Assembly (NCBI GenBank): GCA_021813145.1 | Contig: JAKALS010000004.1 | Coordinates: 72,594-136,593, forward strand | Length of the DNA stretch: 64,000 bases | From: a bacterium | GTDB lineage: Bacteria > Patescibacteriota > Microgenomatia > Levybacterales > UBA12049 | Direction: 5' to 3' | Shown: piece by piece, positions 38,227-64,000 of the stretch | Layout of the letters: the number at the start of each line of letters is the position of its first letter | Position numbering within the stretch: the first letter of the stretch is position 1 | Made by a program: the position numbers and the translations under genes | Notes under the pieces: model-generated | Seen by the model: only the letters and a program-made list of their open reading frames with translations | The model's database searches: none | Told to the model about the DNA's origin: nothing

Positions 38227-38305
38227 TAGCTGTGAAAGAATGAAGTAGGTGTGTTTCCCTCGATTTCTCACTACAGCCGTAAGTGAGCGTAGCGAGTTGA
38301 ATCGG

Positions 38306-38376
38306 CTACGGGACTTGGATTCGAACCAAAATGAATGGATTCAAAATCCACGATCCTACCATTAGATGATCCTGCA
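38306..38376 (-). tRNA. tRNA-Gln (anticodon UUG)
   Basis: Hand-folded cloverleaf: acceptor TGCAGGA/TCCCGTA (one A-C mismatch), U8, D-stem ATCT/GGAT with AATGGTA loop, anticodon stem GTGGA/TCCAT with loop TTTTGAA, T-arm TTTGG-TTCGAAT-CCAAG, U1-A72 and discriminator G73 typical of tRNA-Gln; CCA not encoded. Confidence 0.7.
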
Positions 38377-48681: not shown

Positions 48682-49461
48682 TTATTTAACGGGATATGAA
48701 TTAACTAATGTTCTTAAAAACATTACGGTTTCGTCTATCGCCCTTGGATTGACATTAGTAATGTCATCATCTTTAGTTTGCATTCTGTGCCAAGCTCCTT
48801 CGTGGTAACGCGCTATTACTGCTGCTGCTAAACCCTCTTCTAGAAAGGCTAGATTGTCAGCATTTGGACTATGGTCCCTAAGCTCAACAGGTACTCCTAC
48901 TTTCTTCCCGTGCTCAATGAGAAGCTTATTTAGTTCAGCTGTGTTATCAAGTCTTCTTCCAGTTGTTTGGAAAACCGACATATTTCCTTTTCCAACTGCT
49001 TGAATTGTAATCGCCCCATCGTAAGTATCGATAAATTCCGTTTCATCTGTTATTAAATGTTGTACAAATAGTTTTGACCCTGGAACAAAATCAGGATTTC
49101 TTCGTTGTCTAGTAGCTAAATCCGGATCTAATCCAGCATCAAAATACACCAACCTGATATTAACCGGCAATTTTGCCTTCTGTAAGTGTTCGCTCAACTT
49201 TAATAGCGTGACTACGCTGCTTCCATTGTTGTTGGCGCTTGGTAATGTACCAAAAGTATCGTAATTCGCAGTTACCCAAAGATCATGCGGTTTGTCGTAA
49301 TCAAAAGCAACTACAAGATGTCTGTCAACCCCGCGGGGAGATGTAATTTCGTAAACACGAGGAATTATGCCAAGCTTTCTAGTCTCTTCATCCAAATAAT
49401 TTGCCCGGCCTTCGGTGCCTTGCCCCATTAAACTTTTTAAACTCTTATAGGTTTCTATCAT
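48682..49461 (-). CDS. Hypothetical protein with weak M28-peptidase-like core but substituted metal ligands
   Basis: 'WVTANYDTFGTLPSANNNGSSVVTLLKLSEHL' parallels the M28 'AHYDS...GA.DNASG' block with His->Asn and Asp->Asn. Confidence 0.35.
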   Translation of the reverse strand: MIETYKSLKSLMGQGTEGRANYLDEETRKLGIIPRVYEITSPRGVDRHLVVAFDYDKPHDLWVTANYDTFGTLPSANNNGSSVVTLLKLSEHLQKAKLPVNIRLVYFDAGLDPDLATRQRRNPDFVPGSKLFVQHLITDETEFIDTYDGAITIQAVGKGNMSVFQTTGRRLDNTAELNKLLIEHGKKVGVPVELRDHSPNADNLAFLEEGLAAAVIARYHEGAWHRMQTKDDDITNVNPRAIDETVMFLRTLVNSYPVK

Positions 49462-49463
49462 AT

Positions 49464-50474
49464 TTAAAATCTTGACAGTACGTAAGTTTCCACATCTCTT
49501 CCAACTCTTTCTTTTAAGACATTTGGCGAAATTTGTCCATCATAAAACTCATCAGCTAGTGTTATTGGAGAATCAACGCCTTCCAATCTTCTTTTTGCCA
49601 TTTCGCAAATAATTCCGATATCTAAGGTTGGATTGGGAACCGCGGGGTTAGTAGAAATGAATGAAGCACTTATTAATTCTCTAACATAATCAGGGTCTGA
49701 TCTTTCGATTACTATTCTATTTCTTTGCAAACGTTTGCTTCCTGTTTTATATGCAGTAATCCCATGATCTTCAATGCCCTCATTGGCAAAGAAATATGAC
49801 CAATTCATTCCTAGCGGAAAAGTTGGGGTTAGAAAAAGAGACATTAAGCCTTTTTGCCCACTTCTTTCAGCAACTCTTCTGGCGACATCGTCATACAGAT
49901 CTTCTCTTGGTGGCCCAACTTTTATGTCAAGCCCCAAGATTGTGGCGATTTCGTCAAAAGAATACATGAATCCTTTTACTCTTTCAATTTCTACTTTCGA
50001 TTCAGGAACTGTTTTCTCTACTGCCGCCATAAGTTCTGGATCTGCATTGCAGGTTTGCATAACCCTGTCTCTTTCGGCAACAAATTCTGGTGAATCTATA
50101 TATTCACTCATTCTTACAACTCTCAGTCCCGTATTGTATACGTCATTAACTTTACTTACGAATTTTGCTCTTTGATCGCCAAGAAGCATATAATAATCCT
50201 GATGTTCCTGTCCAACATTTCTACAAGCTGCGGTGTCTGCAACTAAAATTGAAGGATCAACGTTAGAACCCTCCTGTTTTAAGGCTTCTGCAAGATACGA
50301 AACGAACAAGTAATATTTAAGACTATCGATCGGATGACCTTTATCATCATATGTCTCTCCGTAGAAAAGTCTCATAGGCTCAGGAGCAATGCTGCCCGCT
50401 CTACTCCTTATGTCTTCTGCTGAAGGAGCTTGCGAAACTAAACCACGTGTCGATAGTAATCTTTCAATATTCAT
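49464..50474 (-). CDS. Class I aminoacyl-tRNA-synthetase-like paralog (TrpRS/TyrRS-like Rossmann core, degenerate motifs)
   Basis: 336 aa; 'KTGSKRL' in the KMSKS position, 'ILVADTAA' block; adjacent to trpS. Confidence 0.35.
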   Translation of the reverse strand: MNIERLLSTRGLVSQAPSAEDIRSRAGSIAPEPMRLFYGETYDDKGHPIDSLKYYLFVSYLAEALKQEGSNVDPSILVADTAACRNVGQEHQDYYMLLGDQRAKFVSKVNDVYNTGLRVVRMSEYIDSPEFVAERDRVMQTCNADPELMAAVEKTVPESKVEIERVKGFMYSFDEIATILGLDIKVGPPREDLYDDVARRVAERSGQKGLMSLFLTPTFPLGMNWSYFFANEGIEDHGITAYKTGSKRLQRNRIVIERSDPDYVRELISASFISTNPAVPNPTLDIGIICEMAKRRLEGVDSPITLADEFYDGQISPNVLKERVGRDVETYVLSRF

Positions 50475-50569
50475 ATCCTTTACTATAGGGACGTAATTAT
50501 ACTCCCAACTCTAGTTAATTTCAACCCATCTAGATTGAAAATAAAGATATTAAGCAGTATAATTCTGCC

Positions 50570-51613
50570 ATGGTTAATGAACAATATAGGCCAGAAGTCA
50601 TAAATGCCGAACAAAGACTAGGAATTCACTTTGTCAAACCCGATAGCTATTTGGCTGACAGATTAAATTCTCAAATTGCAATAATTGCTGAAACTTTGAA
50701 TGTTCCCGCTAGTATGCCCGTTATACCAGCAAGGGGATTTATTGATAGGCCTTTATTAACCGGGCAGAGACGTGAGATAGATCAACTTATAGAGCTAGAA
50801 TATGCTAATGATGCTGTAGACTTGCAAGATGGATTAACGGCAATTCCTGTAAGAGAAAATGGCGAACGAATGGTACATTTACCTACGCTATTTGAAAGAG
50901 ACAGAATTCCTCTAAGTTTATCATCGCTTCCGTTTCATGAGGCTTGTGGAGAATGGGCGGGAAAAGAAAGGGTATTCTGGGCAAGACAGCAAGTTGCAGA
51001 ACATTTATTAAGAGCAGGAATAGCATTAGATAAGTTAGATATCGTTTTGCATATTGAAGATGCTTTTCGTCCCGTTGGGGTTCAAGAAGGACTTTTTCTT
51101 AGAAGAGCGAAAATGATACTTCAGGAACATCCTGAATGGATAGTTAACTGGGATAAAGTTTGGGCAGAAGCAAGAAGCAAAACAGCCATAACTCCCTTAA
51201 TGGCAGGTCATAAGTCAGGCGCTGCGTTAGACATAACGTTACGAAAGAAATCTAATGGGGAACCTCTATCTATAGGGAACAAATATCCCGAAGGTGGAGC
51301 TAAGGTTGCATTACGTTATCCATATGTTACTCAAGAAGAATGGGCTGCGCGTCAGTTATTCGTCCGCACCATGGAAATGGCAGGTTTACGAAGATATCCA
51401 TATGAAACTTGGCATATCTCATACGGTGACTTGTCTGCGGGTATTTCAGCTGATTCTGATACGGAAATAACGTCGGGTTACGAAGCAATGTACGGTCCTA
51501 TTGAGGGCTTCAACTCTAATGGTGAAGTAATTCCTTACTCTACAGATACGTACAATCAACCATTCTATTCGCAGTTAGAATTACTGGATATAATAAAGAG
51601 GGAAGGTAGATAG
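50570..51613 (+). CDS. M15-family D-Ala-D-Ala dipeptidase-like (VanX-like) zinc peptidase
   Basis: 'HKSGAALDI' (SxHxxGxAxD-type) and 'ETWHISYGD' (ExxH) metal motifs in the C-terminal half. Confidence 0.6.
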   Translation: MVNEQYRPEVINAEQRLGIHFVKPDSYLADRLNSQIAIIAETLNVPASMPVIPARGFIDRPLLTGQRREIDQLIELEYANDAVDLQDGLTAIPVRENGERMVHLPTLFERDRIPLSLSSLPFHEACGEWAGKERVFWARQQVAEHLLRAGIALDKLDIVLHIEDAFRPVGVQEGLFLRRAKMILQEHPEWIVNWDKVWAEARSKTAITPLMAGHKSGAALDITLRKKSNGEPLSIGNKYPEGGAKVALRYPYVTQEEWAARQLFVRTMEMAGLRRYPYETWHISYGDLSAGISADSDTEITSGYEAMYGPIEGFNSNGEVIPYSTDTYNQPFYSQLELLDIIKREGR

Positions 51614-51617
51614 CTTC

Positions 51618-52775
51618 TTATTTTACTTCAAAAACAACAGTATCTTTTGTAATACGGTCCATTTTTTCTAGATCAACATCCCACCCTCTACCAGGTGTAG
51701 TTGGCACTTTAATATATGCTCCATCAGGTTCTCTTTCCATTGGAGCAACACATGGATCGTCACCTTCTTTAAAATATGCGGAAGTGCCTGAGATATCAGA
51801 TGGTAACGTAACTCCTGGATGCGCAGCCATCGCTAAAGAATGAGCCTTCCCAGGAGAAGTTAGCTCAACCATTCCGCCAACCCATGTGTCAACTCCTCTT
51901 TCTTGACAGTAATCAATCATTTTTCGAGCAATGTCTAATCCTCCAACTCTAGTCACCTTAATGTTAATTATGGGGATTCCTCCTTCTACTGCTTGTTCCA
52001 AATCGCTCATTGTATGAATACTCTCATCTAAGCAAATTCTTCCTGGAACACTATTTACATTAAATTCTTGTTGTAATTGTGTATGAGCAACGATATCGTT
52101 ATATGCCAATGGCTGTTCCATCATTAGCAAATCAAGATTTCCATATCCAATAAGTAATCTTTTGTGCTCTGGATTATGTAAATCAAAAGATGAGTTAGCG
52201 TCAATCATGAGTAGTACATCTGGATATGCTGTTCGAATACGTGCAATCTTATCCAAATCTCCTTGACTTGGCCCAACTTTTATTTTTATACGACGGTATT
52301 TATCTTTTGAAATTCTTTCTGCAATTTGTTCTAACGAATCGTTTTTTGAAATGCTTACTCCTACCTCGACTTGAGGCTTTTCTCCTCCCAATAATGTGAA
52401 CAAAGGAACATCCTTATCGATTGCTTCAGCATCCAAGTATAGATTAGCGAATGCCGCTTGGAAAATTGGATGATCCATAAGAAATCCTAGAGATCGAACA
52501 GCTTCGCGTGGATCATCGAAATCTTTGCCTACAAATTTACTTCCAATTTCATTTAGTAATGCCCATGCCTCTATGGTTGATTCAGACCCATAAACAGGGA
52601 ATTTAGTAGTATCTATTGAACTCCAAGCTTCAACTCCATTTGAAGTTTGCCCACGCAGAGCAATCATATCTCTTTTGGGACCAATATCTCGAGGTAAACC
52701 ATCAACGTCACCAAGAGAAAAGACATGTCTCATCTCCGGCGTGATGTATCGTGCTTCTAAACGTTCGAATTTCAT
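51618..52775 (-). CDS. Enolase-superfamily MR/MLE enzyme (dipeptide epimerase / o-succinylbenzoate synthase-like)
   Basis: 'IKIKVG', 'LMIDANSSF', 'MMEQPL', 'LDESI' metal/base motifs. Confidence 0.8.
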   Translation of the reverse strand: MKFERLEARYITPEMRHVFSLGDVDGLPRDIGPKRDMIALRGQTSNGVEAWSSIDTTKFPVYGSESTIEAWALLNEIGSKFVGKDFDDPREAVRSLGFLMDHPIFQAAFANLYLDAEAIDKDVPLFTLLGGEKPQVEVGVSISKNDSLEQIAERISKDKYRRIKIKVGPSQGDLDKIARIRTAYPDVLLMIDANSSFDLHNPEHKRLLIGYGNLDLLMMEQPLAYNDIVAHTQLQQEFNVNSVPGRICLDESIHTMSDLEQAVEGGIPIINIKVTRVGGLDIARKMIDYCQERGVDTWVGGMVELTSPGKAHSLAMAAHPGVTLPSDISGTSAYFKEGDDPCVAPMEREPDGAYIKVPTTPGRGWDVDLEKMDRITKDTVVFEVK

Positions 52776-52781
52776 AATAAT

Positions 52782-53408
52782 TTAGTAATCTAAGTTAAAT
52801 ACTAGAGCATATGCATCTCCAACATTGTAATTTAGTTCACTGTATGAAATCCTATCGTTTTGGGGAATATCCGCATACATAGGCCGTCCGTATAACCCTG
52901 GAAGCAAGACTCTCTCATCCATAGAATAACCTCTGATTTCCCCTGATTGCTTCATTGCTTCGAGTGTATTTTTAATACCGGCTTCAATATTTGGATTTTG
53001 CGTCTCGGTAAACACAATGTGATAACCTCTTTCAATTCCCCTTCTTACTCTTTCCTGAGACATTTTTCTATAAAGACCTGTTTTTTGCGCTTCACCTTCA
53101 ATTAAAACGCCTGCAAGGTAAACGCCCATTCCTTCTGGAAATGGAAAGTTAACCCCTGGAATTCCGTCAAAGGCATCTTTTGGAGATTTAAATTCTATTG
53201 AATCGAAACCAACAGCTCTTCCAGAGCCTTCTGCGACATAAATACTTAAAACATCTCCTTTTAAATGCCTTCGAACATCATCATCTGTGGGGACAAAACC
53301 GCTGGTATTTCGGCAGGCAAGAATTTGTTGAATTGTATCTTCGCCAATTCTCGGATCTTCACAACCAGCGACACTTTCTAAACGTCTAGCAATTATATTT
53401 TCTATCAT
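52782..53408 (-). CDS. Hypothetical protein (208 aa), possibly GNAT-like fold
   Basis: Strong SD AAAGGGAGGTGA; only a weak 'EGEAQKTGLYRKM' resemblance to GNAT motif A. Confidence 0.4.
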   Translation of the reverse strand: MIENIIARRLESVAGCEDPRIGEDTIQQILACRNTSGFVPTDDDVRRHLKGDVLSIYVAEGSGRAVGFDSIEFKSPKDAFDGIPGVNFPFPEGMGVYLAGVLIEGEAQKTGLYRKMSQERVRRGIERGYHIVFTETQNPNIEAGIKNTLEAMKQSGEIRGYSMDERVLLPGLYGRPMYADIPQNDRISYSELNYNVGDAYALVFNLDY

Positions 53409-53510
53409 TTAGTCTCACCTCCCTTTTTTTCAATCTCATAGTTAATTAATGGAGTTATACACCTAAGTCTTGTAAAATGCAAGAGTTATAGGCTTTAAGG
53501 AATATTTTAC

Positions 53511-53852
53511 TTAACCTTTTCTCTCACCACCTCTGTAGACATAGGTATCAATTTCATTACAAAGCCTTGGCCAAAGAACATCGATAATTCGTTCATGTAC
53601 CATGCCAACGTTTATATCAAGTTCTTGCATTGTCTGTTGCCCTTGTTCAGTAGTCATCTTATACAAAGGACTATCTCCCTTAATCCTGCTTCCACTAAAA
53701 GTCCATTCTATTTCAGTTCTTTGTTGATCACTTAGTCTAAATAAGTCAATCCCAGCTAATTCTAATGTAACCGGTTTATCTACGGGAATCTCTGTTGCAG
53801 CTAATATTGCTTTCACTTTCTCTGTGGGAGTTAACTCTGCAAAAGCTTTCAT
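53511..53852 (-). CDS. Hypothetical protein (113 aa)
   Basis: ORF only. Confidence 0.45.
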   Translation of the reverse strand: MKAFAELTPTEKVKAILAATEIPVDKPVTLELAGIDLFRLSDQQRTEIEWTFSGSRIKGDSPLYKMTTEQGQQTMQELDINVGMVHERIIDVLWPRLCNEIDTYVYRGGERKG

Positions 53853-53920
53853 TAGTCAATATTATACATCTGATATTCAAGAGTGGGGACTGCGCACATC
53901 TTGAGTTGTGCGACCCTAAA

Positions 53921-54415
53921 CTATTTCTTAAACTTATACCTTTTTGTAAATACCACCAAGAGGACGACAAAAATTAAGGAAGCACCTAGTGGTGGGAGAA
54001 TATATAATATTAAGCCCAAAATATTATAAGCAAATGAAATAATACCATTCATCAAATCAACGATCTTCGAAAAGATGCCATACATCCCAAGGATTAATAG
54101 CAACCATATAAATTTTTTAGTTTCTTTATACAACTTTCGATCCCTAAGTTTTCTTACAGCTAAGATATATAAACCTAGCCAAAGCTTAAGCCGATACAAT
54201 ACAGCTCCTACTGTTACATAAACCAATGCGCTGTAAAATGCACGATCTAATAAATTAGGGGCTGAAATTGGTTCTATCTTTTTCCACACAAAACTTTTTC
54301 CTAGAGTGAAAGACCACAATAATAATGCTAAAACAAAAAGAACAGTAAATAATGCAGACGCAATAATTCCCCTTTCACGTTTTATAAGAATTTTTTTATA
54401 CCATAACATAATCAC
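53921..54415 (-). CDS. Hypothetical integral membrane protein
   Basis: 164 aa, four or five TM helices. Confidence 0.5.
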   Translation of the reverse strand: MIMLWYKKILIKRERGIIASALFTVLFVLALLLWSFTLGKSFVWKKIEPISAPNLLDRAFYSALVYVTVGAVLYRLKLWLGLYILAVRKLRDRKLYKETKKFIWLLLILGMYGIFSKIVDLMNGIISFAYNILGLILYILPPLGASLIFVVLLVVFTKRYKFKK

Positions 54416-54441
54416 AAGAGGCAGGTTTAAAAATGTAAACT

Positions 54442-55182
54442 TTACTTTAAATATTCGTTTATATCCATAGCGGGGACAGTTCCTAATTTTTGAAGCTCAA
54501 TAATTAAATTCATAAAAAAATTTACCAAGCTATTTTCATCCTTTTGCAAAGCCAATTGATAAGGTTTTTTATTCTCATCCCAAGGATGATAACTTGAAAG
54601 TTTAAAATATGTTTTTCCTATCAATGAACAACCAAAATTTATTACTTTATTTTCATCGGAATTAACTACTATTCCTTGCATCTCCTTTGACAATGAGCCG
54701 TCAAAAGCTAAAATACCTGCAAGTACTCTAGCGTGTTTCTTAGGAGGATATACCCCTCCCGCATGAGGAATTTCAATACTCGTTCTTTTAAGTTTTCTTA
54801 CGGACTCTGCTTTATTTTGAGCGTAGGTTATATTCTCTTTACTTAAATCCTGTTTTACCTCAATAACTGCATACACACATTCAGCAGGAACATATGTAAC
54901 ACCATTTTGTCTCAATATAAATGGTGAATATTGCCTATCAAAGATGACAATGTCAATCTGGTCACTTATTTCTCCGTCGGAGTCAATAACGAAAGCTTTA
55001 TCCGCACAGTACCTTTTAGGAAGATAGGTTGAAAGCATTTCTATCCACTCTAATTCTGTGAAATCACCTTTCGCCGTAGAATGTCCAACAACAGATCTGT
55101 TAAAAGTTAGCTTAGCTTCCATTTGCGTTTGTAAACCTTTAAATATTTCTTTTGTATTGATTTTGTTTTTTGCTTTTACCAT
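54442..55182 (-). CDS. PD-(D/E)xK nuclease-fold protein (candidate effector)
   Basis: 'QIDIVIFD...ECVYAVIEVKQ' gives D...E-x-K spacing of restriction-endonuclease-like nucleases; start overlaps the nucleotidyltransferase stop by 7 nt. Confidence 0.5.
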   Translation of the reverse strand: MVKAKNKINTKEIFKGLQTQMEAKLTFNRSVVGHSTAKGDFTELEWIEMLSTYLPKRYCADKAFVIDSDGEISDQIDIVIFDRQYSPFILRQNGVTYVPAECVYAVIEVKQDLSKENITYAQNKAESVRKLKRTSIEIPHAGGVYPPKKHARVLAGILAFDGSLSKEMQGIVVNSDENKVINFGCSLIGKTYFKLSSYHPWDENKKPYQLALQKDENSLVNFFMNLIIELQKLGTVPAMDINEYLK

Positions 55183-55967
55183 ATAACAGGCGACAAATTT
55201 CCCGTAAGATAAATCGATGTTAAACTACTCGCCGCTTCATTTTTTATTTTAGCTTTTTCTACTTGCGTTAATTCTTCAGATACTTCGTTTCCTAGATTTG
55301 AGGGATCGAGAATAACTTTATCTTCAAAATCATTTGCAAGATAAGTCATTATATCAATAAAATTTTGTGAGGGGCTTCTCGAATAGGATTTTCCGCTTAA
55401 AGCTTCAATAACAGACAACTCTAAATAAAAGGATGGAAAATCTAAGCTCCATAATTTTCTCCAAATTTTCAAAGCTTTGATGTCGGAAATCCTACCTGAA
55501 TTTGCAACGTAACTTATATGTTCATCTATATTTGTTTTCGTCCATGTACCTGGTTTTCTTTTCCAAATAGAGTGATCAGCACTATTAAGAGACTGCTCAA
55601 CCCCTGCTACTAAATCAATTTTGTATCCTGAATGATTTATGCCGATGGAAACATTTTGTTCTCTTACGGAATATCCGGCACCATTAAATCTATTTTTTAA
55701 AGTTGTATATACCTGTTGTAATGTATTACAGGTACTAACAGACGGATTTAGCGAAATGAAATAATCTATGTCAGTTGTACCCGTTATACCAGTCCCTTTT
55801 GCTAAAGATCCCGATAGTTTTAATTCATACTCGTGTCCATTTGCCCAAGAAAGTATATGTATATTCAATTCATTTCCTATTTGAATAACATCATAAGTGA
55901 CATTTGGCGAATGACTTAAAACAACGCTGTTTATGTAATTATCGCTTGCAGATATGTCTAAATTCAT
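55176..55967 (-). CDS. Minimal Pol-beta-superfamily nucleotidyltransferase (SMODS/CD-NTase-like)
   Basis: 'LSGSLAKGTGITGTTDIDYFISL' (GS...DxD) plus third acidic 'YKIDLVAG'; helical C-terminus 'ISDIKALKIWRKLWSLDFPSFYLELSVIEAL'. Confidence 0.6.
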   Translation of the reverse strand: MNLDISASDNYINSVVLSHSPNVTYDVIQIGNELNIHILSWANGHEYELKLSGSLAKGTGITGTTDIDYFISLNPSVSTCNTLQQVYTTLKNRFNGAGYSVREQNVSIGINHSGYKIDLVAGVEQSLNSADHSIWKRKPGTWTKTNIDEHISYVANSGRISDIKALKIWRKLWSLDFPSFYLELSVIEALSGKSYSRSPSQNFIDIMTYLANDFEDKVILDPSNLGNEVSEELTQVEKAKIKNEAASSLTSIYLTGNLSPVIW

Positions 55968-56013
55968 AAATTCTATTGTAATTTTGATAACAACAAAGAC
56001 TTGATGTCTGGGA

Positions 56014-56205
56014 TTATCTTCCGTGACCAGCTTTATTGTGAGCTCGTCTGGAAATTACATATTCTTCTCCACTTTTTGGAGTAGGGGGAAATCTTTCTCC
56101 TCGATCAACGGTAACTTCATGTTCCGTTTTTCCACCGCGGGGACCGATTACTCTTGCTTCTCCTGAAAACGGAGATATTTCTCCTGGCTTAAATGTTTTA
56201 GGCAC
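56014..56205 (-). CDS. YjzC-like microprotein (63 aa from GTG; 74 aa if the upstream ATG is used)
   Basis: 'FKPGEISPFSGEARVIGPRGG...DRGERFPPTPKSGEEY' resembles the B. subtilis YjzC family; AAGGCGGG SD; overlaps the last lexA codons. Confidence 0.45.
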   Translation of the reverse strand: MPKTFKPGEISPFSGEARVIGPRGGKTEHEVTVDRGERFPPTPKSGEEYVISRRAHNKAGHGR

Positions 56206-56833
56206 TTTTATCACCCGCCTTAACAACATCAACAACAATTCCTTGTATTAAAAGGTCTTCGAAAACATAGATCGGTTTATTTGCGGGGTTTGACGAAATT
56301 GGCTCAAGGATAATATGTCCATCTCCATTTTTAAGCTTTTTAATTGTCGCATCGTCTCCGATTAAAGCTACAATTATTTGTCCAGGGTTTGCTGTATTTT
56401 GTTTCCTGATTAACACGTAGTCACCGTTATCGATTGTTCTGCCGTTAATATCCGCCTCGTTCATACTATCTCCAACCGCTTTTAAGAAGAAGTAATCATT
56501 TAGCGTAACTTTTATTTTTTTAGATTCGTAGGGAATGTAGGCTTCGATATTTTGAGTAGCAAGAATTGGAGTACCAGCCGCAACGTTTCCCACAAGGGGA
56601 ATGTTTATTTTTTCTCCAGAATAAGAAGGCTGTAAAGATCGGGATTGATTAGGAGTGTGGGAAAGATAATCCTTCTCCTTTAGAGCCTCCACGTGTCTTT
56701 GAACGGCGCTAATATAGTTATGTCCAGAAGCTTTTCTAATCTCTTCAAGAGTTGGAGGTTTACCAAGTTTAATAGTTAAATCTTTTATGATTGTTAAGAT
56801 ATTTCCCTGTTGGGCTGTTAGACTTTTTCTCAT
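56198..56833 (-). CDS. lexA: LexA repressor (wHTH + S24 autopeptidase)
   Basis: N-terminal LexA DNA-binding domain 'LTAQQGNILTIIKDL...PPTLEEIRKASG', cleavage site 'VAAG', Ser/Lys dyad 'GDSM' and 'TIKKL'. Confidence 0.85.
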   Translation of the reverse strand: MRKSLTAQQGNILTIIKDLTIKLGKPPTLEEIRKASGHNYISAVQRHVEALKEKDYLSHTPNQSRSLQPSYSGEKINIPLVGNVAAGTPILATQNIEAYIPYESKKIKVTLNDYFFLKAVGDSMNEADINGRTIDNGDYVLIRKQNTANPGQIIVALIGDDATIKKLKNGDGHIILEPISSNPANKPIYVFEDLLIQGIVVDVVKAGDKSA

Positions 56834-56836
56834 GGT

Positions 56837-56851
56837 TGGTATATAATACCA
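56837..56851. promoter_or_regulatory. Palindromic operator candidate TGGTAT-ATA-ATACCA overlapping divergent -10 elements in the 32-nt lexA / phage-region intergenic gap
   Basis: Perfect 6-bp arms around a 3-nt spacer; minus-strand TGGTATTAT lies 9 nt before the lexA ATG, plus-strand TATAAT 18 nt before ATG 56866. Confidence 0.4.
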
Positions 56852-56865
56852 CTAATAGTGTAAAT

Positions 56866-57582
56866 ATGCAAGCAGCAGATTCAAACAAAGGTATTAAGTC
56901 AAACCAGTATTGGGAAGATATGGCTTCTATCCTCTCTAATATGAAAAGGTTTAAAAAAGCTGTTATTGATGCTAGGATAAAATGGAAAATCCCAATAACA
57001 GGCTTGCCATGGGATAAAAGGGGTAATTGGTATTCTTCATTATTCGTAAATCCAGACAACACAGATAAAAACTATTATACTTCTGGACAAGATCAACTTA
57101 TTCCGCCAAGTGAAGTTATTCGTTCGACTTTAAAAGAAATATCCGAACAGTTTAACTTAGATAACAGATGGCATTCCTCGCTTCTTCTGCATATTGCTTC
57201 TGATGACGTTCCTTTAACTGCCCCTTTCGGATCACCCTCCCTTGAAATACGCATAAACGATTCAAGACTACCGGAGAAGGAGTGGATTATAAAAAGAATG
57301 TGGATTGAGATTTATCCCGACACCAGTTTAAAAGATATTCAAACACTCTGGAAACGTATCGAGACTTACCAATCAATGATGTCTACGCAATATCCTAAAA
57401 AGAGACGTCCTTTGGAAAACGTTAAAAAGTATATTAAAGTTAGGGAACTTGAAGATAACAATACTACACATAAAAAGATAGCAAATGATTATCCTGAACT
57501 TGGATTTGGCACTTACAAAGACGTCGCAGACTTTAAAAATCGGATTGAAGAAAGATTTTCCCCAAAAAGAGTTAGAAAATAA
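56866..57582 (+). CDS. Hypothetical protein (phage-region ORF, divergent from lexA)
   Basis: Start placed at ATG 56866 (MQAADSNK); the ORF-track start at 56791 lies inside lexA. Confidence 0.5.
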   Translation: MQAADSNKGIKSNQYWEDMASILSNMKRFKKAVIDARIKWKIPITGLPWDKRGNWYSSLFVNPDNTDKNYYTSGQDQLIPPSEVIRSTLKEISEQFNLDNRWHSSLLLHIASDDVPLTAPFGSPSLEIRINDSRLPEKEWIIKRMWIEIYPDTSLKDIQTLWKRIETYQSMMSTQYPKKRRPLENVKKYIKVRELEDNNTTHKKIANDYPELGFGTYKDVADFKNRIEERFSPKRVRK

Positions 57583-57645
57583 CGGTCTTTATTAAAGCAA
57601 TATAAATCGGTATTCATAGTGCTCTTGATGCCCTAGTATAAGGGT

Positions 57646-58962
57646 ATGCAAAACTTAAACATTGTCTATTCGGACATTTCCCAGCTTAAACCCGCTACAT
57701 ATAATCCGAGGGCTTGGAATGATGAGGCAATAAAGCAACTTACGGAAAGTATTAAACGTTTCGGATTAGTAGACCCTATTATCGTAAACGGTTCTAAAGA
57801 AAGATTTAATATTGTAATTGGTGGACATTTTAGACTTAAGGTTGCCAAGGATCTAGGATATGCTGAAATCCCCTGTGTCTATGTAAATATCCCTGACATT
57901 GAGAAAGAAAAGGAATTAAATCTTCGATTAAACCGTAATGTCGGTGAATGGGACTGGGATTTACTTTCCGAATTTGGAGAAAACTTGCTTTCAGACGTTG
58001 GCTTCTCTAGTGAAGAACTGGATGATATTTTTCAAATTGAAGAAACACCCGAGCAATTTGACCTTTGGAAAGAACTACAAAAATTAAATATCACTAAAAT
58101 TGCGACTCAAAAGGGGGACGTATATAAGCTAGGTGAAAATAGATTAATGTGTGGAGATAGCACCATAGAAAGTGATGTGCTGAAACTAATGAACGGTGAA
58201 CAAGCGGATATGTGCTTCACGGATCCTCCGTATCTTTTAGATTATCTCCACGGAAAGAAAAAGAAGGGTAAAGTAACCGAGGGTTTTGGAGCAAAAAGAG
58301 ATAGAAAATATCTTGAAACAGACGTACTTCCTCCTGATTTTACAGAAAAGTGGATGACAAACATCGCCAAAATCCAAAAGCTAGATTTCTCAATCATAAT
58401 TTTTGAAAATCCCAAGAACTTAAGGACAATTTGGTGTGAACTTGAGAAACATTGGAGATACAGAAATACAATTGTTTGGCATCTTCCAAATAGAATGCAA
58501 GGATTTGCCGCAAAATATAAGTTCTTCAATAAACATGACATTGCTCTAGTTGGGACAAGTGGCGATATTGGTTTAAACCTTGCTAGCGAAGACGAACTGT
58601 TTCAGAATGAATATGAAAATGCTCTATACGCAACTTCCGGAAAACCACACTGGGAAGGATATGAAAAAGGAAAGAAAATCCAACCAAGTGATTTTATTGA
58701 ATTTGTTGCTTCAGACGAAAAACACTCAGGACAAGGAATAATTTTCGGCACCAAACCTATCGAGGTTCTTATTCCTTATCTTAAGGTTTTAACAAAACGC
58801 GGAGATTTGGTAATTGAACCATTTGGTGGTAGCGGTAGTACGCTTATCGCCAGCGAAAAACTTAGAAGACGCTGCTTCATTATGGAGAAATCACCTGTCT
58901 ATGCGGAAGTAATCATAAAACGCTGGGAAAAGTTAACTGGACAAAAAGCAATAAAAATGTGA
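57646..58962 (+). CDS. ParB-like nuclease domain fused to N6-adenine/N4-cytosine DNA methyltransferase (phage-type orphan MTase)
   Basis: ParB N-terminus 'VDPIIVNGSKERFNIVIGGHFRLKVAK'; 'DPPY' (MCFTDPPY) and 'FGGSGST' MTase motifs. Confidence 0.8.
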   Translation: MQNLNIVYSDISQLKPATYNPRAWNDEAIKQLTESIKRFGLVDPIIVNGSKERFNIVIGGHFRLKVAKDLGYAEIPCVYVNIPDIEKEKELNLRLNRNVGEWDWDLLSEFGENLLSDVGFSSEELDDIFQIEETPEQFDLWKELQKLNITKIATQKGDVYKLGENRLMCGDSTIESDVLKLMNGEQADMCFTDPPYLLDYLHGKKKKGKVTEGFGAKRDRKYLETDVLPPDFTEKWMTNIAKIQKLDFSIIIFENPKNLRTIWCELEKHWRYRNTIVWHLPNRMQGFAAKYKFFNKHDIALVGTSGDIGLNLASEDELFQNEYENALYATSGKPHWEGYEKGKKIQPSDFIEFVASDEKHSGQGIIFGTKPIEVLIPYLKVLTKRGDLVIEPFGGSGSTLIASEKLRRRCFIMEKSPVYAEVIIKRWEKLTGQKAIKM

Positions 58963-59369
58963 AAACAGATAAAAACAAACAAATATTAATTGATCAACTA
59001 AGAAAAACGCCGATTATTCAAATCGCTTGCGAAAAATCAGGAATTGGACGAGCAACATATTATCGTTGGAAAAAAGACGATGCAAAATTTTGCGAAAACG
59101 CAGACGAAGCTTTGCAAGAAGGAAGCTTGTTGGTTAATGATATTGCGGAATCTCAGTTAATGAGTGCAATTAAGGATAAAAATATAACTGCAATAATCTT
59201 TTGGCTTAAACACCATCACCCAAATTACGCGACCAAAGTAGAAGTTACTGCAAGACTTAAGGCAGACAATGAAACTTTAAGCCCAGAGCAAGAAGCTTTA
59301 GTAACTAAGGCTTTACAAATTGCGGCTCTAATTCCAAAAGTAAAGGAGGAAGAAAAGCATGATACCTAA
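58959..59369 (+). CDS. Phage terminase small subunit-like HTH protein
   Basis: 136 aa, 'IACEKSGIGRATYYRWKKDD' HTH; immediately upstream of and overlapping the large terminase. Confidence 0.45.
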   Translation: MKTDKNKQILIDQLRKTPIIQIACEKSGIGRATYYRWKKDDAKFCENADEALQEGSLLVNDIAESQLMSAIKDKNITAIIFWLKHHHPNYATKVEVTARLKADNETLSPEQEALVTKALQIAALIPKVKEEEKHDT

Positions 59370-60867
59370 TTTAACTGAAAATGAATTACTCGAGATAAAA
59401 AATAAAAGAGTTGTCAGAAGAAACCTTGCAAAAAATAGTCATTTTTGGTTTTTCTCCATTTATCTTAGTCACTATATTAAATTCCCCTTTGCCGCTTTTC
59501 ATCATGAAATGTTTCGTATTACCGAAGATTTACTTCTTCGTTTTGTTGTGCTAGTTGCTTTTAGAGGCTCTGGCAAATCAACCATTATGACTTTGTCTTA
59601 CGTAATTTGGTCAATAGTCGGATTACAAAAGAGAAAATTTGTTCTCATCTTAAGCCAGACACAAAATCAAGCCAAAACACACATGGCAAATATCAAAAGA
59701 GAGTTGGAATCTAATGAATTGTTAAAAGCGGACATCGGGCCATTTGAAGAGATAAGCGATGAATGGGGTTCAAATTCAATTGTTCTTTCAAACTTTGGCG
59801 CAAGGATTACTATTGCCTCAACAGAACAAAGTATTAGAGGGTTAAGACATGGTGAACACAGACCGGATTTAGTTATTTGTGACGATGTAGAAGACTTAAA
59901 TAGCGTTAAAACTAGAGAAGGACGGGATAAAACATTTCAGTGGTTAACAGGAGAAGTTTTACCAATCGGAGACCAGAATACCAAGATTTTAATTATTGGT
60001 AATCTTTTACACGAAGACAGCCTTTTAATGAGACTCAGGCAGGCAATTGAAAATGAAAGAATTAATGGAAGATTTTACTCTTATCCTTTACTCGATGACG
60101 ACGATCAAATTTCTTGGCCCGGGAAATATAAAACATTAAAAGATATCGAAGATTTAAAAAAGTCTATTGCTTCAGATTCGGCTTTCTCAAGAGAATATCT
60201 ATTAAAAATTATTTCTGAGGATGATAGGCTGGTTAGGCCGGAGTGGGTTCAGTATTACGATGTTCTTCCTAACCAAGAAGGAAATAACTTTCGAGAAACA
60301 GCAACTGGAATTGATTTAGCAATCTCTGAAAAAGAGTCAGCGGACTGTACAGCAATGGTTTCAGCAAAAGTTTTTGGTTACGGAGACGATTTAAAAGTGT
60401 ACATACTTCCAGATCCTATAAACGCAAGAATGGATTTCCCCACAACCTTAGAATCGGCCATAACTCTATCAAAAGGGTTAGGAACTTATTATCCGACAAA
60501 ACTATACATAGAAGAAGTTGGTTATCAGTCCTCTTTAATACAAAGCTTAGTCAGTAAAAACATTCCGGCCGAGGGAGTAAAGGTAGCAGGTCAAGATAAA
60601 AGGGCAAGACTGGCATTGGTTACGCACATGATTCAACAAGGTAAGGTTTTATTTCCAAGAACCGGTGCTGAACAATTAATTGAACAGCTAACAGGTTTTG
60701 GAATTGAAAAACACGATGATTTAGCAGATGCCTTTGCAATACTTATGTTAAAAATTCTTGAAATGGAAAGCCAAGCGGAACCAAGAATCACTATTTTAGA
60801 AGTTGGAAGTATGTTTGGAGATTCTCCGTTTGATTACAAACCTATCACTATAGATACAATTTTCTAG
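59359..60867 (+). CDS. Phage terminase large subunit
   Basis: Walker A 'AFRGSGKST', Walker B 'LVICDDVED', C-terminal RNaseH-like nuclease acidic residues 'GIDLAIS...ADCTAMV'. Confidence 0.8.
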   Translation: MIPNLTENELLEIKNKRVVRRNLAKNSHFWFFSIYLSHYIKFPFAAFHHEMFRITEDLLLRFVVLVAFRGSGKSTIMTLSYVIWSIVGLQKRKFVLILSQTQNQAKTHMANIKRELESNELLKADIGPFEEISDEWGSNSIVLSNFGARITIASTEQSIRGLRHGEHRPDLVICDDVEDLNSVKTREGRDKTFQWLTGEVLPIGDQNTKILIIGNLLHEDSLLMRLRQAIENERINGRFYSYPLLDDDDQISWPGKYKTLKDIEDLKKSIASDSAFSREYLLKIISEDDRLVRPEWVQYYDVLPNQEGNNFRETATGIDLAISEKESADCTAMVSAKVFGYGDDLKVYILPDPINARMDFPTTLESAITLSKGLGTYYPTKLYIEEVGYQSSLIQSLVSKNIPAEGVKVAGQDKRARLALVTHMIQQGKVLFPRTGAEQLIEQLTGFGIEKHDDLADAFAILMLKILEMESQAEPRITILEVGSMFGDSPFDYKPITIDTIF

Positions 60868-61073
60868 AATAGGTCAGATAAGGAGACTTTAAGAGCTTTT
60901 GCTATTTTATCAATCGTTTGAACAGGTGGGTTACTAAGACCCCTTTCAATCCTACTAACAGTTGTGTAGTGTAGTCCGACTTTATCAGCCAAATCTTCTT
61001 GGGTCATCTTTTTATCTTTCCTTGCCCTTTTAATCCTTTTTCCTAATTTCTCATTGACTCTATATTTTCTCAT
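60864..61073 (-). CDS. XRE-family (Cro/CI-type) HTH transcriptional regulator
   Basis: 'MTQEDLADKVGLHYTTVSRIERG' canonical HTH_3. Confidence 0.8.
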   Translation of the reverse strand: MRKYRVNEKLGKRIKRARKDKKMTQEDLADKVGLHYTTVSRIERGLSNPPVQTIDKIAKALKVSLSDLF

Positions 61074-61184
61074 AGTAATAAAGTAATGAATCTAAGAATA
61101 AAAATGTATAGCGTCAGACGCTTTATTTAGCCTTGACTTTATGCTTAAATATAAGTAATATGTCATCAATAGGCACGAAAGGAG

Positions 61185-61697
61185 GTGATAAGAATGGAAG
61201 AAAAGAAAAAGAATTGGTTTATGCGACATAAAATTATCACTGGGATTTTAGTTTTTATTGTATTAGTTGGCGTATTGGGCGCAGCAGGTAGTAAGTCGGG
61301 AAACTCCGGAAGCAACAATCAATCTAGTTCAGCAAGTAATAGCGCTCCAACGCAAGCAGTCCAACAGCCACCTACGGTTGTTGTTGCAACAGCTCTTGTC
61401 GGAGATTATGATAAAAACAAACTCTCGGCACAAGATAAATATACGGGCAAAACCGTTCAGACAACTGCATACATAGATAATATCAGCGATGATATTACTG
61501 GAAATTACTATTTATCTTTGCATCCAACAAATGACCAGTATTACGCAGGAACAAGTATTTCCTGCTACTTTGCAGATAAATCTGCGAAATCTGAATTAAC
61601 GTCTTTGCAAAACGGTCAATCAGTGACGGTGCAAGGAACAATGGCAGATATGTCGTTAGGGATTGTAGTAATGAACGATTGTAAAGTCGTGAAATAG
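61185..61697 (+). CDS. Hypothetical membrane-anchored secreted protein
   Basis: N-terminal TM helix, Ser/Asn-rich linker; followed by a terminator. Confidence 0.5.
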   Translation: MIRMEEKKKNWFMRHKIITGILVFIVLVGVLGAAGSKSGNSGSNNQSSSASNSAPTQAVQQPPTVVVATALVGDYDKNKLSAQDKYTGKTVQTTAYIDNISDDITGNYYLSLHPTNDQYYAGTSISCYFADKSAKSELTSLQNGQSVTVQGTMADMSLGIVVMNDCKVVK

Positions 61698-61719
61698 GTA
61701 ATAGAATTATTCTATTAAG

Positions 61720-61745
61720 AAAACCTCTGGGCAAGGGGTTTTCTT
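61720..61745 (+). terminator. Intrinsic terminator after the 61185-61697 gene
   Basis: AAAACCTCT-GGGCA-AGGGGTTTT stem-loop followed by a TTC-interrupted T-run. Confidence 0.5.
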
Positions 61746-61800
61746 ATGTCTTCTACTGGACTTCCTCTCTTTTCTGCGGTACTGTTGACCTATAAATAGG

Positions 61801-63087
61801 ATGAGTATAAATAGTATCCAAAACAATGAGAATATCCTGTATTGTCTGTATGCTCGAAAATCTACAGAAGATGACGAAAGACAAGCTATGTCGATAGACT
61901 CCCAGATCAAAGAAATGACAGAAATGGCATTAAAAGAAGGAATAATTATTAAAGAAATTCGTCAGGAAAAACACTCTGCAAAGCTTTCAGGACAAAGACC
62001 AATATTTAACTCCCTTCTCCAAGACATACGAAACGGAGTATTTACTGGAATCCTTACTTGGGCACCAGACAGATTAAGTAGAAATGCCGGGGATTTAGGA
62101 ATGTTGGTAGATTTAATGGATCAAGAGAAATTACAAAAGATTAAAACGTATTCTCAAACATTTTCCAATAATCCTAATGAAAAATTCTTATTGATGATTT
62201 TATGTTCTCAGGCAAAACTTGAAAACGACCAGAAAGGAATAAATGTTAAAAGAGGCATTAGAGCAAAGTGCTCAATGGGATGGCGCCCGGGAATTGCGCC
62301 ACTCGGATACATGAATAGAGCTTTTGGAGGTGTAAAGGATATAATCGTTGATCCAAAGCGAGGACCAGTTGTAAAAGAAATGTTCGAGAGGGTTGCGTAT
62401 AGACAACAAAGTGGAAGAAGAATAAAAGAATGGATGGATAAAATTGGTTTTACCACCAGAAACGAAAAGAAAATACAAATTAGCTTAATCTATCTTATGC
62501 TTCGTAATCCATTTTATTACGGATATTTCGAATACTCAGGGGACTGGCATAAGGGAGCACATGAACCGTTAATTACAAAAGAAGTATTTGATGAGGCACA
62601 AAAAGAGCTAGATGAAAGATGCATTCCAAAAGTCAGAGGCAAAACAGAATTCCCATACAAAGGATTATTTAATTGTTATACTTGCGGAACGTCTGTCTGT
62701 GGGGAGGAAAAATATAGGAAAAAGAAAAATGGATCAACCAATTATCATGTTTATTATCACTGCACAAGATCTAGGAATCCTAACTGTAAGGAACCATATG
62801 TAACTGAAATAGATTTAATAAAGTTAATTAAGCAAAATATCCTTAACCTATCAGAGGAGACATTAAAAGAGAATTTAACATCTAATATTATTGATGAACT
62901 CTATAAATATCAGCCTATTGTTGAGGAAATAGAGTTTTACAAAAGAGATGACATTGAATACGACGGGAAGGTGGATCTGAAAGACATTATTGTTTACGCT
63001 TGCAGCAAATCCCCGATTAAATTTAGAAGAGAATTAATTCAGAGTCTTCCGATTCCTAAAAACCTACACAATCTTCTGCTTATTTAA
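61801..63087 (+). CDS. Large serine recombinase (resolvase/invertase catalytic domain + recombinase domain + zinc ribbon)
   Basis: 'LYCLYARKSTEDDERQAMSIDSQ' catalytic Ser block; 'CYTCGTSVCGEE...YHCTRSRNPNC' Zn-ribbon; 428 aa. Confidence 0.85.
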   Translation: MSINSIQNNENILYCLYARKSTEDDERQAMSIDSQIKEMTEMALKEGIIIKEIRQEKHSAKLSGQRPIFNSLLQDIRNGVFTGILTWAPDRLSRNAGDLGMLVDLMDQEKLQKIKTYSQTFSNNPNEKFLLMILCSQAKLENDQKGINVKRGIRAKCSMGWRPGIAPLGYMNRAFGGVKDIIVDPKRGPVVKEMFERVAYRQQSGRRIKEWMDKIGFTTRNEKKIQISLIYLMLRNPFYYGYFEYSGDWHKGAHEPLITKEVFDEAQKELDERCIPKVRGKTEFPYKGLFNCYTCGTSVCGEEKYRKKKNGSTNYHVYYHCTRSRNPNCKEPYVTEIDLIKLIKQNILNLSEETLKENLTSNIIDELYKYQPIVEEIEFYKRDDIEYDGKVDLKDIIVYACSKSPIKFRRELIQSLPIPKNLHNLLLI

Positions 63088-63398
63088 GAATGCAATATGC
63101 TATATGGCCTAAATGGTTCGAATCCGAGAAGTCTGATTAAGTAAATTTTAGCTTCAAAATAGCATTTTGGGGGAGTTAGAACCAAAAAATCTACAGCATG
63201 AGTTATACAAGATTAGCTTACTATCATAATCTAATCTTAAGTGGTGCTTTCGTTCGAGCACAGTTCTGCTGGCGAACTTGCCCGTAGGTGGAACCAGATT
63301 TTACCTAGCTTTTTAGCTACCTTTGAGAAACTCAAGAATCTTGGCTTCACCTACTACAATGGCAACGTCTCTGTTATTTTACCAGAAAAGGAGGAAAA

Positions 63399-63848
63399 AT
63401 GAATTCCCTTCTCTCTTCCGGACTTTTTGACGAAAAGACCTTTTATCAAGTCTTTATTCAAGACTTAGAAAACAGTAAAGAGGAAGTGTTTATTGAAAGC
63501 CCGTTTATAACAACAGAACGGACAAAACCCCTTATTCCCCTATTCAATAAATTGCTTGAAAAAGGAGTGAGAATATACGTAATGACAAGAGATCCAAAAG
63601 AACACGAGGAAAAAATGGAATATCAATCAGAAGAAATAATATCCTGTTTTGAAAGACTTGGAATACAGGTTTTACTCTGTATCGGAAATCATCATAGAAA
63701 ACTGGCAATAATTGACAGAAATATTTTATGGGAAGGAAGTCTTAATATTCTTTCCCAAAACAATAGCCGGGAGATAATGAGAAGAATAGAAGGTGAAGAG
63801 TTGTCTTTGGAAATGTTTAATTTCCTTAAGCTTTACAAATTTATTTAA
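63399..63848 (+). CDS. Single-HKD phospholipase-D-family nuclease (Nuc/BfiI-like)
   Basis: 'HHRKLAIIDRNILWEGSLN' = HxK(x4)D(x6)GS motif; 149 aa. Confidence 0.7.
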   Translation: MNSLLSSGLFDEKTFYQVFIQDLENSKEEVFIESPFITTERTKPLIPLFNKLLEKGVRIYVMTRDPKEHEEKMEYQSEEIISCFERLGIQVLLCIGNHHRKLAIIDRNILWEGSLNILSQNNSREIMRRIEGEELSLEMFNFLKLYKFI

Positions 63849-64000
63849 CGAATATATACTACGGCTATGAGTTACGAAATAAACGAAAAAGATATTCAAA
63901 GCATTATTAATTTCTTAAAGAAAACCGATCCGGAAAATGCCACTCCTGAAATGGCAATAGCTATTTTGGAACATCTTCAAAAAACTTTTCATTCTTTAAG

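Follow-up and report, generated by a model that had tools for sequence, protein, structure and literature searches.

Phage-inducible chromosomal islands (PICIs) with the Staphylococcus aureus pathogenicity islands (SaPIs), and the minimal islands known as PICMIs, are small integrative islands without structural genes that carry an integrase, a repressor, their own small terminase subunit (TerS) for diverting the packaging of a helper, and often defence cargo. A locus of similar outline is described here from a bacterium of the Patescibacteriota (Microgenomatia, Levybacterales, UBA12049). It is located at about 56.9-63.4 kb of a 64,000-nucleotide stretch of contig JAKALS010000004.1 (assembly GCA_021813145.1, positions 72,594 to 136,593 of the forward strand), which is called the window below. 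The locus is a cassette of genes for a ParB-methyltransferase (MTase) fusion, TerS, the large terminase subunit (TerL), and a large serine recombinase (LSR), in this order. With a probability of roughly 0.55, it represents an intact, compact integrative mobile element of satellite-like type, which is capsid-less, bears a terminase, integrates by means of the LSR, and probably depends on a helper phage.

PICIs and SaPIs have a tyrosine integrase and a primase/Rep module and use the TerL of the helper, whereas the cassette encodes a serine integrase, TerS, TerL, and the ParB-MTase, and no detectable replication genes. The tyrosine integrase, the primase or replication initiator, and the AlpA/Stl-type regulator by which PICIs and SaPIs are recognized are all absent from it. 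Capsid-forming PICIs (cf-PICIs) resemble the cassette in having both TerS and TerL of their own, but they encode capsid, portal, protease, and head-tail connectors, of which neither this copy nor about 110 related loci have any. The PLE of Vibrio cholerae is also a phage satellite integrated by an LSR (PMC6002521), and it is without its own capsid genes. It differs from the cassette in its size of about 18 kb, its own replication module, the lack of terminase genes, and its restriction, as far as is known, to one species and one helper. The phages and elements with LSRs (SPbeta with SprA, TP901-1, A118) have the same three-domain recombinase and an integrase gene at the end of the element, but they are complete, 40-135 kb long, and do not target tRNA flanks as the cassette family apparently does. 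In packaging modules of tailed phages (L129 and L125 from IMG/VR), a ParB-nuclease or MTase gene, TerS, and TerL are found in the same order, but TerL is followed there by portal, protease, and major capsid protein, and in the cassette by cargo and LSR. The virion-encapsidated integrative mobile elements (VEIMEs) of marine bacteria (PMC9618062) are likewise small, integrative, discovered from sequences, thought to hijack phage capsids, diverse, and environmentally widespread; they have other hosts.

Some general features of satellites are found in the cassette, namely a small integrative unit (about 6.4-12 kb, with sharp ends of homology), an integrase with a regulator, no virion module, and, for packaging, conserved TerS and TerL of its own. 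The cassette works most like a phage satellite, yet it belongs to none of the described satellite families. We know of no report of the ParB-MTase/TerS/TerL/LSR core, and no description of the cassette was found in the literature, the coverage of which was incomplete, so an earlier description may exist elsewhere. The features of the cassette are the following (window coordinates):

56893..63384, plus strand: putative mobile unit, orf238 through the LSR plus about 300 bp, placed by assembly-graph branch points; the same data can also be read as 56923-63354
56866..57582, plus strand: orf238, 238 aa, left end of the cassette; fast-evolving accessory open reading frame (ORF), left unannotated in the initial annotation
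57646..58962, plus strand: ParB-MTase fusion, 438 aa (ParB_N 1.5e-11, N6_N4_MTase 3.8e-19, phrog_498 8e-83)
58959..59369, plus strand: TerS, small terminase subunit with helix-turn-helix (HTH), 136 aa (phrog_309 1e-9, also phrog_4102 and phrog_4044)
59359..60867, plus strand: TerL, large terminase subunit, 502 aa (phrog_38 2e-79; Terminase_6C above cutoff)
60864..61073, minus strand: XRE/Cro-CI-type repressor, 69 aa (HTH_3 1e-19), convergent with TerL
61185..61697, plus strand: OB-fold (tRNA_anti-like) membrane-anchored protein, superinfection-exclusion (Sie)-like (PF12869 1.4e-19, phrog_8545 5e-16); unnamed in the initial annotation
61716..61746, plus strand: intrinsic terminator-like hairpin 3' of the OB-fold gene, 13-pair stem with T-rich tail; passed the terminator scan
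61801..63087, plus strand: LSR (integrase), 428 aa (PF00239 Resolvase 3.7e-20, PF07508 Recombinase 5.8e-16, PF13408 Zn_ribbon_recom 1e-4, phrog_95 7.6e-62)
63115..63125, plus strand: tRNA T-arm-like motif GGTTCGAATCC, 28 nt after the LSR stop; candidate att-related site

The core ORFs are all full length, and the motifs of the MTase and the LSR are intact. Domain and PHROG matches agree with the initial annotation on the ParB-MTase, TerS, TerL, XRE repressor, LSR, and a single-HKD phospholipase D (PLD) nuclease to the right of the cassette, and the terminator hairpin that it had placed before the recombinase was also recovered. The translation of the ParB-MTase shows the DPPY and FGGSGST motifs of a CcrM-like MTase of class beta, and its closest solved proteins are ParB/Spo0J and CcrM. 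The TerS ORF shares 4 nt with the end of the MTase ORF and 11 nt with the beginning of the TerL ORF, and therefore the three genes are probably translationally coupled. TerL combines an ATPase domain, with FRGSGKST as Walker A and LVICDD-E as Walker B, with a nuclease domain of the RNaseH-like type, and it has partial matches to NF033889 and TIGR01630; a T7-type TerL is the closest solved protein, the match being weak. The LSR has the three domains of its family, i.e., a resolvase catalytic domain with nucleophilic Ser, a recombinase domain, and a zinc ribbon, and its nearest solved relatives are SPbeta SprA (YokA) and TP901-1 Int. The start codon giving 428 aa was chosen because the catalytic serine of the YARKST motif needs it. 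No match to primase, Rep, or AlpA was obtained in profile searches of the proteins of the locus. The G+C content, a comparison proposed with the initial annotation, is only slightly lower in the cassette than in the rest of the window.

Homologues of TerL numbered 3264 at E<=1e-10. The best 119 non-self matches are 61-74% identical, and many of them are on contigs of 0.2-0.9 Mb named Roizmanbacteria, Microgenomates, or Patescibacteria. When one genome per GTDB species was scanned, the TerL clade comprised at least 565 loci, a lower bound on its prevalence, from essentially every class of Patescibacteria, among them Microgenomates, Saccharimonadia, Paceibacteria/Parcubacteria, Dojka-, Doudna-, and Peribacteria, and WWE3. 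Related loci were inspected as the best 80 per collection (GTDB species representatives; IMG/VR), with genes called by a simple longest-ORF caller and taxon labels taken from record titles. The best 80 of the at least 565 loci have a TerL identity of 49-74% and are labelled Levyi-, Shapiro-, Woese-, Kuenen-, Falkow-, Moranii-, Pacei-, Peri-, Dojka-, and Doudnabacteria, Saccharimonadia, and WWE3. Some records bear names from outside the candidate phyla radiation (CPR); these are mostly titles of co-assembled metagenome-assembled genomes or very short contigs, and the cassette is apparently restricted to Patescibacteria (CPR).

When the proteins of the window were compared by BLAST with the ORFs of the 80 loci, TerS was found in 78, the ParB-MTase in 76, and the LSR in 57-60; in 26 of the 80, no more than 250 bp separate the TerL stop from the start of the LSR. 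When 1489 neighbouring genes were clustered without supervision, only four families exceeded 18 loci, namely ParB-MTase, TerS, TerL, and LSR. The next most common neighbours are xre (18-19 of the 80 loci), LexA (18-19), OB/Sie-like proteins (13-15), and a DUF4352-like membrane protein (12). Families of portal or capsid genes were absent within 10 kb on either side in the 80 GTDB loci and about 30 IMG/VR cassette loci. Two architectures were distinguished. Type A, as here, consists of an ORF of about 240 aa, the ParB-MTase fusion, TerS, TerL, a cargo slot, and the LSR, and type B has an additional stand-alone DPPY MTase. The type A ParB-MTase is 64-77% identical even where the identity of TerL is only about 50-55%. 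ParB-MTase, TerS, TerL, (xre, Sie-like), LSR is the canonical order of the family; the gene order of this locus, initially regarded as scrambled and atypical, is the usual one.

The left end is less constant. No Pfam, PHROG, NCBIfam, or PADLOC family matched orf238, which has a second in-frame ATG at 56920. Three homologues (60-63% identity) were found, every one upstream of a ParB-MTase, and this number is too low for a conserved core component, a role that was considered and rejected. ORFs of 210-280 aa (families f8, f15, f25, and f34) are found at its position in other type A loci. To the right of TerL, xre is the first gene of a variable cargo and immunity slot. Within the OB-fold/Sie-like gene, contigs of three independent assemblies end at 61287, 61378, and 61392; low coverage or strain-level hypervariability could be the reason for these breaks.

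All inspected IMG/VR contigs with a TerL of at least 46% identity carry the same cassette (about 30 contigs), and many are merely 4-8 kb long. Among L098-L124, many uncultivated viral genomes (UViGs) of 4-8 kb are the chromosomal cassette alone. Two full-length tandem TerL paralogues, an unusual terminase arrangement, were seen in otherwise normal cassettes of L030, L036, L051, and L081 (also L106, L108, L109, and L123), each about 50-60% identical to the window TerL. Four loci (L050, L066, L070, and L090) encode a TerL of 629-710 aa, with 160-230 extra residues C-terminal to a complete TerL. Inteins were considered as the cause of these lengths of 630-710 aa and rejected, as the additional residues are C-terminal extensions.

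Conservation is about 100% across 74 related TerLs for Walker A, for Walker B and its catalytic Glu, for the GNLLHED motif, and for the aspartates of the nuclease. In a neighbour-joining tree, computed without support values, all 105 cassette-linked TerLs were placed in one clade, and none of 46 other TerLs fell within it. Phage L125 is the sister of this clade. Gene arrays of real phages occur only at TerL identities of 33-39% (L125, L129, L130, L133, and L134). In L125 and L129, TerL is directly followed by portal (1e-96 to 1e-99), protease, and major head protein according to PHROGs, and L129 has a ParB nuclease upstream. TerLs of GenBank phages are at most 28% identical to the window TerL. 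Matches on GenBank records of about 5 kb named 'Bacteriophage sp.' have nothing else in common with the cassette and are probably phage fragments.

The initial annotation had proposed either a decayed prophage or a satellite/phage-inducible island. Its first option, a tailed temperate phage that lost its structural, replication, and lysis modules, would account for phage-derived genes, for a sister lineage that is a real phage, and for adjacent genes resembling an accessory island. A set of four intact genes in constant order in at least 565 loci is not, however, what random decay would leave behind. Since these genes recur intact with invariant catalytic residues, they are not products of decay. 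There are also no intermediates with partial structural modules among about 110 loci, and the unit has moved recently between genomes (L067/L068, below). A decayed prophage is therefore a very improbable explanation, and the satellite option of the initial annotation fits best.

The flanks of the cassette vary between loci, and the window shares DNA similarity with all its relatives only in coding regions between 57.7 and 62.8 kb. L067 and L068, from two species, are 91% identical over 6394 bp with unrelated flanks. The shared block begins about 120 nt upstream of the ParB-MTase and stops at the 3' end of a tRNA-Ser, whose anticodon is cga in the one genome and tga in the other. The bases of the acceptor stem are not the same in the two and in each case match the genome's own tRNA, and therefore the element ends at the tRNA or just outside it. 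A unit of about 12 kb is common to L039 and L049 (83-86% identity), with a type IIG-like restriction system and a helicase between TerL and LSR; its homology stops about 55 nt past the LSR stop.

Among 52 loci in which the LSR follows TerL, 26 have a downstream tRNA. In every one of these 26, the nearest tRNA lies on the opposite strand and turns its 3' end towards the LSR (p about 1.5e-8 if orientations were random). Of these nearest tRNAs, 15 are tRNA-Ser, seven tRNA-Gln, two tRNA-Glu, and two tRNA-Asp, 22 of them lie within 2.6 kb, and several contigs terminate within such an LSR-facing tRNA. In L029, L038, and L085, the 3' end of tRNA-Ser overlaps a direct repeat of 13-24 nt whose other copy is found 4-7.5 kb upstream of TerL, and the two copies bracket 9.6-15.8 kb. 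Three genomes have two copies of the cassette. Pairwise divergences of the four genes are only weakly to moderately correlated (Spearman 0.08-0.45), which indicates that modules have been exchanged between elements. It had also been considered initially that the terminase and ParB-MTase genes might be conserved core genes of the lineage; conserved they are, but as a mobile cassette and not as core chromosomal genes.

Two further arrangements were noted. L040 has tRNA-Arg(tct) twice on the same strand (3774-3848 and 5231-5305), 1.4 kb apart, between an upstream LSR and a downstream ParB-MTase/TerL cassette, an arrangement that could have arisen by tandem or nested insertion at a single tRNA site. 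L085 has an LSR on either side of a single cassette.

For the copy in the window, boundaries were deduced from independent assemblies. Logan contig L003, present in two samples, is 6492 bp long and corresponds exactly to 56893-63384, and L002 likewise terminates at 63384. L093, from the same sample as L003 and covering the LexA side, ends at 56922 and so overlaps the start of L003 by 30 nt. This length is presumably k-1, given k=31 for Logan. The ends of the three contigs show that the assembly graph branches at both sides of a 6.49-kb unit, which resembles the 6.39-kb unit of L067/L068 in size and gene content. The branch topology is compatible equally well with excision, an empty site, or strain replacement.

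Direct repeats that could serve as att sites were looked for between 53.4-57.7 kb and 63-64 kb, and the longest was a 14-mer in coding sequence, judged a chance match. An empty site or attP junction was sought through identical LexA or LSR proteins elsewhere, and only the same locus was obtained; the breaks in one MEGAHIT sample look like low coverage.

The motif GGTTCGAATCC downstream of the LSR has one other copy in the window, in the T-arm of tRNA-Gln(ttg) at 38304-38376, the number of copies expected by chance being 0.06. The region at 63.1 kb matches this T-arm over only 15 nt. As initially annotated, no full tRNA is formed there; ARAGORN found no tRNA, and Rfam found no tRNA-like RNA even at E<=10. 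Plus-strand T-arm-like motifs comparable to GGTTCGAATCC occur 8-83 nt past the LSR stop in L030, L034, and L037. Together with the LSR ends that abut the 3' ends of tRNA-Ser and tRNA-Gln in the family, they lend indirect support to the initial suggestion that the motif is the scar of an integration site, and GGTTCGAATCC may be att-related. This copy, however, has no tRNA within 7.5 kb.

A life cycle can be proposed for the satellite-like element from its gene content. The packaging module of ParB-MTase, TerS, and TerL would have been captured once from a tailed-phage lineage and joined to an LSR. The variable slot between TerL and LSR holds immunity and cargo genes, here the XRE repressor and the Sie-like membrane protein. 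The LSR would integrate and excise the element beside tRNA 3' ends or at secondary sites. Upon infection by, or induction of, a helper tailed phage, the coupled genes for MTase, TerS, and TerL would be expressed, and TerS would recognize a pac site of the element itself. The ParB-MTase may mark or license the DNA, by analogy with phage P1, in which adenine methylation can reportedly gate pac cleavage (Sternberg & Coulby 1990). TerL would then cut the DNA and pump it into procapsids supplied by the helper, for which CPR phages related to L125 and L129 are candidates. Tentatively, the cassettes may form a phylum-wide and previously undescribed CPR class of minimal satellites, with no capsid or replication module, with TerS, TerL, and ParB-MTase, with an LSR acting at tRNA-Ser or tRNA-Gln, and with defence, efflux, or metal-resistance cargo.

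Several observations weigh against a helper-dependent mobile element. Neither excision and packaging nor a helper phage is directly evidenced, and no replication module (primase/Rep) is detectable in the locus, unlike in most known satellites. The junction bases at the assembly breaks have no common crossover dinucleotide, and the breaks could reflect strain replacement instead of excision. As noted above, the window copy is not flanked by a tRNA in the 7.5 kb downstream. About 25% of the related loci have no LSR within 10 kb (L180 has none within 6 kb), and none of 58 short related contigs was circular in a check for terminal repeats. Over a whole phylum-level radiation, TerL has a median identity of 52%, an unusually high value for an element that parasitizes diverse phages; such conservation would also fit a host-beneficial function.

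A domesticated or defence system of this kind would use the MTase to mark self, and TerS with TerL either as an ATP-dependent nuclease guided by sequence or as a decoy by which the packaging of invading phages is derailed, the whole being placed on or next to an LSR element in defence islands. The surroundings are suggestive in this respect. A two-gene minimal cyclic-oligonucleotide-based antiphage signalling system (CBASS) is located at 54442-55967 on the minus strand, directly left of LexA. It consists of a CD-NTase cyclase at 55176-55967 (PADLOC PDLC00803, 2e-75) and a NucC endonuclease effector at 54442-55182 (2e-88), and this stretch has the lowest G+C content of the window (0.325-0.35). 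Defence systems are reportedly rare in CPR bacteria. On the other side of the cassette is the PLD nuclease.

In the family, the genes found in or beside the TerL-LSR slot, assigned by reading representative sequences and not by profile search, include restriction-modification systems (type I, III, and IIG), P-type ATPases, CsoR, MacAB-like efflux pumps, and Sie-like proteins; restriction-modification systems of types I, III, and IIG are placed beside many loci. Further points in favour of defence are the very strong conservation of the MTase (64-77% identity), the second stand-alone MTase of many loci, the existence of the core without an LSR, and a conservation unusually high for phage-derived genes. 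Such a neighbourhood does not discriminate between the two readings, because satellites and other mobile elements also sit in defence islands and carry them. In PADLOC, TerS, TerL, LSR, and orf238 gave no match, and the MTase domain matched only generic Type II MTase models. The pair of TerS and TerL, with an intact portal-docking-type architecture and a phage lineage as sister, is explained most simply as a packaging enzyme, and the unit moves as a block together with the LSR. A defence role is thus unlikely, although it is the alternative to which we give most weight, and a mobile satellite-like element is preferred.

The genes next to the unit on both sides are:

56198..56833, minus strand: LexA (LexA_DNA_bind and Peptidase_S24), divergent left neighbour outside the unit
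63399..63848, plus strand: PLDc_2 single-HKD nuclease, 149 aa (PLDc_2 1.3e-11; one HxKx4D motif, HRKLAIID), right neighbour outside the unit

The start codons of LexA and the cassette are 32 bp apart and divergent. A palindrome in the gap (TGGTAT-ATA-ATACCA, 56837-56851) overlaps a TATAAT box, and the best promoter-like site is at 56819-56847; the palindrome is loosely shared with L042 only. A LexA gene is found 2-4.5 kb upstream of TerL in 18-19 of the 80 loci (about 23%), far above chance for a single-copy gene, and this adjacency hints at a coupling to the SOS response. Neither a perfect-palindrome screen of about 75 loci nor inspection of 15 LexA-adjacent intergenic regions revealed a shared operator or LexA box upstream of the cassette.

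LexA adjacency is also among the arguments for a packaging platform that acts in situ, in the manner of lateral transduction or gene transfer agents. An integrated pac site and terminase would start headful packaging of the adjacent chromosome into capsids encoded elsewhere or by a resident prophage, and the LSR would serve insertion only. The lack of a detected replication module, the accumulation of defence, metal-resistance, and efflux genes downstream of TerL and LSR, and the host-like G+C content of the cassette are in line with it. Structural genes are, however, absent from 71 kb here and from 10 kb on either side of about 110 other loci, the intergenic regions on the LexA side have no common operator, and discrete units of 6.4-12 kb with sharp ends of homology argue that the element itself moves. 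We regard such a platform as quite unlikely, though more probable than a decayed prophage, and return to the mobile element.

Genes for aminoacyl-tRNA synthetases, SecDF, MetK, RecJ, enzymes of sugar-nucleotide metabolism, and domains of unknown function typical of CPR are found in the upstream part of the window. The downstream side was followed in L001, a metagenome contig of 122 kb obtained by exact-protein look-ups, which is 100% identical to 49359-64000 of the window and extends 6.9 kb further. The PLD gene is followed there by an ORF of 67 aa, a second XRE gene, a chromate transporter (ChrA), ArsP, thioredoxin, ArsR, an M23 peptidase, and genes resembling those of type IV secretion systems (T4SS). 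At 15145-21509 of L001, all on the minus strand, the ChrA/ArsP/thioredoxin/ArsR metal-resistance cluster precedes the M23 peptidase and VirB4/TraG-, TraC-, and PrgI-like T4SS genes; this region may be a separate island or ICE (integrative conjugative element), or the T4SS of the CPR chromosome. The PLD protein has weak matches to the PLD domains of the MkoC/DrmC defence proteins, its gene was not found beside other cassettes in the 80 related loci, and together with the 67-aa ORF and the XRE gene it may form a small defence or toxin-antitoxin-like module.

From about 9 kb to the end of the window, and in the 6.9 kb past it, no gene for portal, capsid, or tail was found. This agrees with the initial annotation as far as the window goes; its expectation that the remainder of a phage-like island lies beyond 64 kb is not supported, as PLD, XRE, metal-resistance, and VirB4/TraC/PrgI genes are located there and no structural genes.

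The T4SS genes 5-7 kb downstream of the LSR in L001 raise the question of whether LSR and cassette are the integration end of a larger integrative conjugative element (ICE) that includes PLD, XRE, ChrA/ArsP/ArsR, and VirB4/TraC/PrgI. That LSRs are common as ICE integrases in Firmicutes speaks for this. Against it, genes of T4SS type are widespread on the chromosomes of CPR bacteria, and here they lie outside the cassette unit; none of their families recurs next to the cassettes of the 80 loci, DNA homology with relatives ends within the LSR (about 62.8 kb), the branch point at 63384 precedes the PLD gene, and no relaxase was seen in the approximately 7 kb downstream. An ICE is accordingly as improbable as a decayed prophage, and the small satellite-like unit ending at 63384 is favoured.

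To our knowledge, CPR/Patescibacteria make up a large share of bacterial diversity, yet hardly any of their mobile elements and very few of their phages are characterized. A capsid-less TerL conserved at 50-74% in hundreds of species provides a clear and easily searchable marker for a whole class of elements. Virus-detection pipelines appear to file the cassettes as viral contigs (IMG/VR UViGs of 4-8 kb), and the counts of 'CPR viruses' are inflated in this way. The compact LSRs, with their apparent specificity for tRNA flanks, and the highly conserved ParB-MTase are candidate tools. If the elements are helper-dependent, hidden and widespread compatible CPR phages are implied, which could be found by co-occurrence and by matching of portal and TerL. 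If the reading as mobile elements is true, it would explain how restriction-modification, CBASS-type, and metal-resistance genes move between reduced genomes, and the cassettes could represent a main route by which genes are transferred horizontally among CPR bacteria.

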